NCBI RefSeq assembly: GCF_028368995.1
Contig: NZ_JAQNDL010000001.1
Coordinates: 1,408,001 to 1,472,000, forward strand
DNA: 64,000 nt
Source of the DNA: Nannocystis bainbridge
Lineage (GTDB): Bacteria > Myxococcota_A > Polyangia > Nannocystales > Nannocystaceae
Direction: 5' to 3'
Shown: piece by piece, positions 22,262-22,713 of the stretch
Layout of the letters: every line of letters starts with the position of its first letter
Numbering within the stretch: position 1 is the first letter of the stretch
Notes under the pieces: model-generated
Told to the model about the DNA's origin: nothing
Seen by the model: the letters and a program-made list of their open reading frames with translations, nothing else
The model's database searches: none
Program-made: the position numbers and the translations under genes

Positions 22262-22290
22262 TTGACGCGGCGCCGGACCTCGCGGATACT
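22262..22290 (+). promoter_or_regulatory. Sigma70-like promoter of the tRNA cluster
   Basis: TTGACG (22262-22267), 17-nt spacer, GATACT (22285-22290); AT-richer stretch upstream. Confidence 0.7.
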
Positions 22291-22300
22291 CCGGTTCGCC

Positions 22301-22396
22301 ATGTCGCGCCTCAATCCCAATACGAGCAATCCTGCTCGCTTCCGCGTCCTCGGCAACGAGGAACGGGAGCTCGAGCGGATCCTGCGCGGGGGTTGA
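22301..22396 (+). CDS. Putative leader peptide, 31 aa: MSRLNPNTSNPARFRVLGNEERELERILRGG
   Basis: ATG about 10 nt after the -10 box. 4 Asn codons (AAT x3, AAC) and 4 Glu codons (GAG x3, GAA) match the downstream tRNAs. Stop lies inside an 11-bp stem-loop. Confidence 0.55.
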   Translation: MSRLNPNTSNPARFRVLGNEERELERILRGG

Positions 22397-22432
22397 GTGA
22401 TGGGCCCGCGCAGGAGAATCTCTCCAGCAGAC

Positions 22433-22506
22433 GCGGGCGTCGTCTAACAGGCCAGGATCCGGGGTCCTCACCCCCGAGACGCAGGGTTCGAGTCCCTCCG
22501 CCCGCG
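22433..22506 (+). tRNA. tRNA-Glu(CUC), atypical
   Basis: Acceptor GCGGGCG/CGCCCGC; D-arm GTCT..AGGAT; anticodon stem CGGGG/CCCCG with loop TCCTCAC (C at position 33); T-loop TTCGAGT; one T-stem mismatch; CCA not encoded. Confidence 0.8.
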
Positions 22507-22513
22507 CATCAGC

Positions 22514-22587
22514 GCTCTGTTCGGCCAGCGGTTCAGGCCACCTCGCTTTCACCGAGGTTCGCAGGGGTTCGAATCCCCTACAGAGCA
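22514..22587 (+). tRNA. tRNA-Glu(UUC), atypical D-stem
   Basis: Acceptor GCTCTGT/ACAGAGC; D-stem GGCC/GGCC; anticodon stem CCTCG/CGAGG with loop CTTTCAC; T-arm AGGGG-TTCGAAT-CCCCT; CCA not encoded. Confidence 0.9.
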
Positions 22588-22603
22588 AATGTCGCGTCCT
22601 CCC

Positions 22604-22675
22604 GGGTCGGTAGCTCAGCGGGAGAGCGATGGATTGTTAATCCATCGGTCGTGGGTTCGATCCCCACCCGGCCCT
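22604..22675 (+). tRNA. tRNA-Asn(GUU) anticodon on an atypical body (G1-C72, U73)
   Basis: Acceptor GGGTCGG/CCGGCCC; TAGCTCAGCGGGAGAGC D-arm; ATGGA-TTGTTAA-TCCAT anticodon arm; GTGGG-TTCGATC-CCCAC T-arm. Confidence 0.9.
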
Positions 22676-22677
22676 CT

Positions 22678-22713
22678 ATTCGCGGCCCCGCGAATCGCAT
22701 GCTCATGCGATTC
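22678..22713. terminator. Double hairpin between the tRNA cluster and the convergent cls gene
   Basis: ATTCGCGG-CC-CCGCGAAT overlapping GAATCGCATG-CT-CATGCGATTC; no long U-tract. Confidence 0.5.

Follow-up and report, generated by a model that had tools for sequence, protein, structure and literature searches.

Leader-peptide transcription attenuators control amino-acid operons, i.e., trp, his, leu, thr, pheA and pheST of enterobacteria, and bacterial tRNA genes are usually described as being under growth-rate and stringent control at the promoter. In this work, we have analysed a window of 64,000 nucleotides (the whole stretch of DNA under study, positions 1,408,001 to 1,472,000 of contig NZ_JAQNDL010000001.1) from Nannocystis bainbridge, in which a short open reading frame (ORF) rich in Asn and Glu codons stands directly before three extra tRNA genes for Glu and Asn. 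An earlier note, made from the letters of the window, had suggested that this ORF encodes the leader peptide of an attenuation-controlled operon of spare tRNAs. We have found that the observation is real and non-random. The principle at work is supported as that of leader-peptide attenuation, and what would be new here is the presumed target, namely tRNA genes.

Among the described systems, trp/his-type attenuators come first, with pheL as one example (PMC3082878). Like them, the locus has a short ORF at the predicted transcript start, directly upstream of the genes to be regulated; the ORF is enriched in cognate codons, hairpins overlap its 3' end, and its reading by the ribosome is the presumed signal. 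Unlike them, it has tRNA genes behind the leader rather than biosynthetic or synthetase genes, it shows neither a Shine-Dalgarno leader nor a hairpin with a U-run terminator, and some of its sister leaders carry just a single cognate codon.

A precedent for the leaderless design comes from mycobacteria. According to Canestrari et al. (10.1101/834739), leaderless polycysteine short ORFs act as such attenuators there, and several operons share the design, for which the authors use the term 'ribulon'. Another report (PMC13096801) describes that in M. tuberculosis the cleavage of tRNA-Cys by VapC4 stalls ribosomes at Cys codons, those of the attenuator short ORFs included. The likeness to our locus is considerable: the ORFs are leaderless (here by geometry), the cognate codons lie near the 3' end next to RNA structure, a stalled ribosome is thought to block the structure just downstream, and several operons share one design. 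On the other hand, the mycobacterial structure masks a ribosome-binding site, that of a protein gene downstream, and cysteine metabolism is what the regulon covers, while the genes after the leader are tRNAs in our case, so there is no ribosome-binding site to hide. The amino acids covered here are Glu/Asn, Cys, Phe, Ser and Leu/Pro/Tyr.

Inducible extra tRNAs are also on record. The L-array of Anabaena sp. PCC 7120 contains 23 tRNAs and is controlled at the promoter through direct repeats over its -10 box, probably by a repressor, as described in PMC8421152, which makes no mention of a leader peptide, 'attenuat-' or an upstream ORF (uORF). The two systems share the split between housekeeping and extra tRNAs, with the extra part thought to serve under translational stress, but our operon is limited to three tRNAs, of two identities, behind a codon-specific leader ORF. 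T-box leaders resemble our leader in acting in cis and in addressing one tRNA identity via a codon-like triplet; they differ in that no family match is obtained here and that the triplets are inside an ORF from a conserved ATG. In agreement with the earlier note, whose author knew of no such arrangement, full-text literature searches, in a collection that lacks most subscription journals, gave no description of tRNA genes under leader-peptide control.

The leader ORF and the extra tRNA genes

The unit starts with a promoter-like site, TTGACG-N17-GATACT, predicted by a motif scan at 22262–22290 of the forward strand, to which the leader features and tRNA genes below also belong. It is the only sigma-70-like site in 21900–22900, where shuffled sequences give 0.0 ± 0.2. 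Between this promoter and the first tRNA gene at 22433 we have located the leader ORF of 31 codons plus TGA (22301–22396, with the stop codon at 22394–22396; peptide MSRLNPNTSNPARFRVLGNEERELERILRGG), which is predicted to be 5'-terminal in the transcript; its ATG lies 10 nt past the -10 hexamer. Three AAT codons for Asn occupy codons 5, 7 and 10 (22313–22330), and the fourth Asn codon, AAC, is codon 19 (22355–22357). Immediately after it comes the Glu codon cluster GAG GAA cgg GAG ctc GAG (22358–22375, Glu codons 20, 21, 23 and 25), encoding an E-R-E-x-E motif. The promoter, the ORF and these codon counts are all as the earlier note had given them.

Such a composition is hardly expected by chance. 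Under a null of the trinucleotide frequencies of tRNA-upstream DNA, the occurrence of 8 Glu and Asn codons among 30 has P = 3e-5, and that of three AAT within 30 codons has P = 1.4e-4 (intergenic, tRNA-upstream null). AAT had been called unusual at this GC content, and it indeed makes up 0.125% of the codons in 1807 long ORFs of the genome. Also, the Glu and Asn triplets of the leader are distributed as 8/1/1 over frames 0, 1 and 2. A longer ORF of 46 aa beginning with the ATG at 22256 was set aside, since this ATG is upstream of the -35 box; in the alignment with relatives it is frame-shifted in genome G007 and absent in G003.

The leader RNA is predicted to be strongly folded (-64.7 kcal/mol, z -3.25, equalled by 0 of 200 shuffles), and every stem named by the earlier note has been recovered at its place. 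In the first hairpin (HP1, 22329–22379), the 5' arm is rich in pyrimidines and the 3' arm with which it pairs is rich in Glu codons; 22329–22338 pairs with 22372–22380 with one base bulged, and a smaller hairpin with a 6-bp stem and a GCAA loop is enclosed (22347–22362). An exact complementarity between 22323–22328 and 22333–22338 is available as well. The second hairpin (HP2, 22380–22415) is formed by 11 perfect pairs, 22380–22390 with 22405–22415, and holds the stop codon in its loop. HP2 also appears in the consensus fold of six same-genus leaders.

The three tRNA genes that follow are tRNA-Glu(CUC) at 22433–22507 (39.7 bits in Rfam), tRNA-Glu(UUC) at 22514–22587 (59.3 bits) and tRNA-Asn(GUU) at 22604–22676 (69.2 bits). 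Ordinary-looking Glu(CUC), Glu(UUC) and Asn(GUU) genes sit elsewhere in the genome, where ARAGORN finds 102 tRNA genes in total, and the window's copies are only 64%, 66% and 68% identical to them, respectively. This justifies the word 'spare' that had been applied to them. The CCA end is present in the ordinary Asn(GUU) gene and not in the window's copy. As a side observation, each of the six same-genus copies of the extra tRNA-Glu(CUC) carries a C where a U almost universally precedes the anticodon, and this accompanies the low Rfam score of 39.7 bits. Past the last tRNA gene, a hairpin with 15-nt arms 2 nt apart (22687–22718), conserved in relatives and having no U run, is likely the operon end. 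Taken together, 22262–22718 reads as a probable single self-contained operon, in which a strong promoter leads into a proposed sensor ORF with two hairpins, and the three extra tRNA genes come behind.

Elsewhere, the same genome contains a longer array, of 23 tRNAs of many identities within 2.6 kb (C2:2556665-2559233), and no codon-matched leader was seen before it.

Conservation of the leader and its match to tRNA identity

The host genome is of high GC, with 11 Mb in 5 contigs, and the genomes of its relatives have 12–13 Mb. We have found the whole unit in five of the ten other same-genus genomes, and thus the leader ORF is kept in 6/6 large genomes of the genus. The locus was not found in G002, G004, G006, G008 and G009, which are 64–88% complete and in 40–1440 contigs. 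In the six-way alignment, the region from the -35 box through HP2 is nearly invariant, while the DNA further upstream has diverged. The indels within the ORF are of 3 and 6 nt, and the first one after the stop codon is of 2 nt.

Outside the genus, a search by DNA similarity did not find the leader, yet it recovered relatives of the odd tRNA-Glu, and upstream of each of them the same leader design is present. A class-wide pattern search over 401 genomes matched 95 of them (a reversed-pattern control gave ~14 hits) and contributed four further loci; the module is found in just 15 genomes, all of the window's family, with the other matches judged from the matched strings alone. One match, in G074, was rejected as a 159-aa ORF with no tRNA. 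The resulting Glu-type set comprises 15 loci from four genera of one family, six from the genus itself and nine from three others, so that conservation of the uORF, which the earlier note had proposed to check in orthologues, extends as an architecture to three other genera.

In all 15 loci, the distance from TTGAC to the ATG is 38 or 39 nt, the leader has 3–5 Glu codons, and an array of Glu or Glu/Asn tRNAs follows, to which two arrays of one genus add a Gln tRNA. The ORF has 29–32 codons (38 in one locus) and ends with TGA in 10, TAG in 4 and TAA in 1. E-R-E-x-E is seen in 13 leaders, and those of G057 and G011 read D-E-R-E at the aligned stretch. There are 1–4 Asn codons in the leader where tRNA-Asn is present, and 0 and 1 in G064 and G067, respectively, whose arrays have no tRNA-Asn, a trend that rests on one Asn-less lineage. 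Apart from this, between the leader and the first called tRNA at one locus (L037, G056) there is a tRNA-like sequence, which has the acceptor-stem start of the extra tRNA-Glu and a long perfect hairpin in place of the anticodon arm.

Is the ORF read? The promoter-ATG geometry, the frame and the indels suggest that it is, probably from a leaderless or nearly leaderless mRNA. A genome-wide search for the promoter-ATG spacing gave 22 matches, of which eight are small ORFs, three before extra tRNAs and one before a paralogue of EF-Tu. The same spacing starts real genes, such as those for ribosomal protein L13 (full domain) and a frataxin homologue (profile aligned from residue 1), which suggests that mRNAs with this spacing are leaderless, or almost so, in this organism. 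Across the Glu-type leaders, Glu and Asn triplets are mostly in frame 0 (besides 8/1/1, e.g., 7/1/1 and 4/1/0). Between genera, Glu (GAA/GAG) and Arg (CGG/CGT/CGC/CGA) codons show synonymous differences, and the stop codon changes from TAG to TAA between G057 and G011.

The RNA itself is conserved, too. The stop codon is enclosed by predicted pairs in 15/15 Glu-type leaders, and among the competing folds only HP2 itself is kept across genera. In another genus, the hairpin homologous to HP1 shows a compensatory change from C-G to U-A between G059 and G061. The six same-genus leaders vary too little for such changes to show up in their consensus fold, which contained 0 pairs altered at both positions. 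Overall, both the RNA structure and the reading frame appear to be under constraint.

The match between leader codons and tRNA identity is not confined to Glu and Asn. In the same genome, the promoter-ATG geometry of the Glu leader also occurs before two other sets of extra tRNAs, namely three tRNA-Cys and one tRNA-Phe, and by listing the short ORFs before every multi-tRNA cluster we have obtained Ser and Leu/Pro/Tyr leaders. The Cys leaders end with ..SLC(CC)R.., and their Cys codon is solely TGT, which is kept in 6/6 genomes; in G005 and G010 the ends read ..SLCCCRP and ..SPCCCRP with three TGT in tandem (P = 1e-3; for this and the following values the null is built from tRNA-upstream DNA). 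The frame is kept in 5/6. When the whole family was searched with the Cys leader, it turned up in this genus alone. As for the Phe leaders, the middle varies and the end is ..LF[T/M/R]* with TTT in 6/6. The Ser leader MLPRRTDRTRSPRSVSGFGRSSSSSR (P = 3e-3) is conserved in 6/6 and precedes tRNA-Ser(GCU), (GGA) and (CGA); its run TCC AGT TCG AGT TCA, which reads TCC AGT TCG xxx TCA across the six genomes, contains codons of all three Ser anticodons. Its ATG is 35 nt from TTGACG with a gap of 6 nt after the -10 box, and hence the RNA start would fall at the ATG. The Leu/Pro/Tyr leader MAGLLLLPELLDPRPYLRLLPYLPR precedes tRNAs for Pro, Leu, Leu, Tyr, Leu, Leu and Leu, which can read 13 of its 24 codons (P = 6e-7). 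It is an open L/P/Y-rich frame in 6/6, with an ATG that is shifted yet in frame in five.

When the five leaders were scored against the five tRNA sets by anticodon-readable codons, the true pairing ranked first of the 120 permutations. Codon content is thus related to tRNA identity in five extra-tRNA operons (Glu/Asn, Cys, Phe, Ser and Leu/Pro/Tyr), as the earlier note would have it for one. In addition, the cognate codons used are the rare A/T-ending wobble ones; like AAT, TGT and TTT are scarce in the genome (0.095% and 0.114% of codons, respectively). No such leader was seen before the ordinary tRNA clusters of the genome.

Some further ORFs came up beside these five. A 54-codon ORF with five AGG codons before tRNA-Arg(CCU), at the top of a neutral scan of tRNA-upstream ORFs, was rejected as a sixth leader since it is not conserved: in five relatives the homologous frame has 0–3 AGG codons, and its start or stop is lost. 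The second rank of that scan is an ORF before an ordinary Ser(CGA)-Ser(GGA) pair, and an ORF beside it shows cross-genus conservation of the kind expected for a piece of a protein gene. A search with the Ser tRNA cluster revealed extra Ser arrays in two other genera. For the one in G067, no Ser-rich ORF was seen within 480 nt. In G054 (L149, minus strand, upstream of 1410), an internal ATG opens a 51-codon stretch whose codons include 10 for Ser, 9 for Ala, 3 for Gly and 3 for Trp; the array after it comprises Ser x6, Gly, Ala x3 and Trp x2. This stretch may be a further codon-matched leader, but the promoter spacing differs. At the Cys locus of the host genome (L097, minus strand, C1 ~3057560-3057650), a 10-nt unit is repeated in ~7 tandem copies between the leader ORF and the tRNA-Cys genes; none of the other five genomes compared has it.

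A sixth member of the leader family stands before a protein gene. In 6/6 genomes, a leader reading MLRAT..QSQLALSQPQLLDL[S/L]CA precedes a divergent EF-Tu paralogue. In the host genome (C1 ~3118150-3119700, minus strand, L116) it is a 25-codon ORF, leaderless by geometry, ~270 nt before the paralogue, which scores 523 bits on the EF-Tu subfamily model, just below the equivalog cut-off.

With regard to the flanks of the window's operon, a kinase-like gene (20719–22086) lies upstream, and a cardiolipin synthase gene lies downstream on the opposite strand (22748–24013). The kinase-like gene is syntenic in 4/5 relatives, which indicates a chromosomal locus and not an obvious mobile element. An exact 16-nt repeat is shared by the 3' end of the kinase-like gene (22024–22039, encoding ..ELERI..) and the Glu-codon part of the leader (22367–22382), and could be a trace of the leader's origin. 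Besides, a short palindromic repeat of the type TGTCC.CGAGGACATG has several copies in the intergenic regions 22087–22136 and 24309–24396 and more copies scattered across the genome and its relatives; it may be a dispersed regulatory or REP-like element.

A possible sensing mechanism and its rivals

Based on the above analyses, we favour, with a probability of roughly 0.6, a codon-specific sensor leader, in which poor decoding of Glu and Asn codons raises the spare tRNAs via HP2 in a negative feedback. Ribosomes would start at the 5' AUG while the RNA emerges, and their speed over the Asn codons, mostly the rare AAT, and over the Glu cluster would report the working supply of the Asn and Glu tRNAs. 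The 5' arm of HP2 follows the last Glu codon at a distance of 7 nt. A ribosome stalled on this codon would cover the arm and keep HP2 open, whereas a ribosome running through and leaving at the stop codon would let HP2 form. HP2 would then be the 'off' element, blocking the downstream tRNAs either by ending transcription, perhaps with Rho, or by hindering precursor processing. In this manner, poor decoding of Glu or Asn would yield more spare tRNA.

The placement of codons is consistent with such a scheme in all five leader types, where the next strong hairpin has the last cognate codon within its 5' arm or immediately ahead of it; the Cys, Phe, Ser and Leu/Pro/Tyr codons are 1–2 codons before the stop, which abuts or is within the hairpin. 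The attenuation proposed by the earlier note has gained conservation and a codon-tRNA match, and what we still infer is that stalling would switch the tRNAs on rather than off. Likewise, the controlled step may be transcription termination, and the natural trigger may be tRNA damage rather than codon demand. Since more tRNA would be of no use in amino-acid starvation and useful if a tRNA is lost or the codon demand is up, a sensor of tRNA supply or integrity would seem the more plausible form, in favour of the integrity sensor suggested by the earlier note.

Several findings weigh against the sensor reading. As for the RNA, we have looked for a terminator-like hairpin with a U run in 21900–22900 and found 0 (0.5 expected); HP2 is followed by GAATCTCTCC with no U run, just as the earlier note had remarked for the last stem. 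The hairpin at the operon end also lacks a U run, which means that U runs may not be needed for termination in this organism. In the free leader RNA of the window, enforcing HP2 gives -57.9, compared with -64.4 for a more stable long-range fold. When ribosome footprints were masked during folding, a check that the earlier note had put forward, no clean on/off switch emerged, and HP2 was formed at 1/9 of the positions tried. Regarding the coding side, most ORF substitutions within the genus alter the amino acid while synonymous sites are almost invariant, indicating that the constraint on RNA or DNA is at least as strong as the coding constraint. One hairpin change between G059 and G061 preserves the pair at the cost of an Arg to Gln replacement.

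The remaining points concern the match to tRNA identity. The Cys leader of G007 is out of frame via a 2-nt deletion, the Leu/Pro/Tyr leader of G001 has no ATG (an in-frame GTG is upstream), and G067 has its one leader Asn codon in front of an array without tRNA-Asn. The single Cys and Phe codons of the leaders in the host genome are not significant alone (P = 0.45 and 0.11, respectively). In the neutral scan, which is noisy and covers 27 tRNA clusters and 41 ORFs, the window leader ranks 7th, where it was scored as the longer ORF from ATG 22256. Finally, the four sister leader types have been seen in one genus only, within six closely related genomes.

Of the rival explanations, the first accepts a translated, cis-acting ORF and assigns it the opposite or a non-specific logic, and we regard it as unlikely. 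In the pyrBI leader, a ribosome closely behind RNA polymerase melts a hairpin and transcription proceeds. By analogy, a ribosome trailing the polymerase would melt HP2 and let transcription continue, stalling would shut the tRNAs off, and the spare tRNAs would be made in proportion to the general translation capacity. The ORF does cross the 5' arm of HP2 with its stop codon in the loop at 15/15 loci, so that every terminating ribosome must open HP2. The Asn codons are far upstream of HP2, and a ribosome there leaves both arms free; in the masked folding, HP2 was formed only with Asn10 in the A site. Moreover, the same-family leader before the EF-Tu paralogue has no dominant codon. This logic, however, leaves unexplained why leader codons should match the operon's tRNAs and why rare wobble codons are used, and it does not account for the last cognate codons of five leader types being placed where a stalled ribosome would cover the hairpin 5' arm.

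Somewhat less likely still is that the leader is a structured untranslated RNA, serving tRNA-precursor processing, stability or pausing, and that the frame is a by-product, with the codons arising from the pairing of GAR-rich and YUC-rich arms in GC-rich hairpins. The strong fold (z -3.25), the near-invariant nucleotides including synonymous sites, the compensatory hairpin changes and the location of all Glu codons of the window leader in a hairpin 3' arm all agree with this. On the other hand, hairpins do not explain the three TGT and the conserved TTT, the run of five Ser codons for three anticodons, or an L/P/Y-rich frame before matching tRNAs. Nor do they explain the fixed promoter-ATG distance that is common to real leaderless genes, the in-frame indels and the frame-0 bias, and E-R-E-x-E is kept while the surrounding hairpins differ between genera.

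A ribosome-free, T-box-like mechanism, in which the cognate codons are specifier triplets pairing directly with the tRNA anticodon, would suit triplets cognate to the downstream tRNAs in structured leaders, but it is very improbable: in the Rfam scan of 21800–23000 up to E = 1 we have obtained the three tRNAs and one chance microRNA match, with no T-box or other riboswitch, and the triplets are in frame with a conserved ATG and come in runs (three TGT, five Ser codons) rather than singly. We give equally little credit to a small protein with its own function that is merely co-transcribed with the tRNAs, for although most of the 15 Glu-type leaders, across all four genera, have an alignable C-terminal E-R-E-x-E-x-x-[L/P/A]-R-G, the N-terminal halves vary freely between genera, the five leader types have nothing in common except cognate residues and promoter geometry, the conserved codons of the C-terminal end fall on the HP2 arm, and in G062 the nucleotide motif is offset by 2 nt from the frame.

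Possible meaning for the decoding machinery of the lineage

A broader picture can also be drawn, which as a whole we consider tentative and well below an even bet. The lineage would hold a reserve translation kit, composed of divergent extra tRNAs for at least eight amino acids (Glu, Asn, Cys, Phe, Ser, Leu, Pro and Tyr) and a divergent EF-Tu, with each part gated by its own leaderless sensor ORF. Codon-specific stalling would turn on exactly the matching spare tRNAs. The stalling could be caused by toxins that cut tRNAs, released by competitors, or by toxin-antitoxin systems of the cell itself, and since the spare tRNAs diverge from the housekeeping ones, they could escape the attack of such toxins.

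If true, the cell would mend its decoding machinery in an autonomous repair loop, and tRNA genes would for the first time be seen to be controlled through how their own codons are read. Codon-specific feedback that runs from the ribosome to the cognate tRNA would add a new regulatory layer and extend the leader-peptide principle past amino-acid metabolism. It would also provide a function for the many 'redundant' divergent tRNA genes of large genomes. The 170-nt leader is a simple testable system, which could show how the loss or damage of a single tRNA species is sensed, and the same design before the EF-Tu paralogue hints at a wider regulon read by the ribosome.

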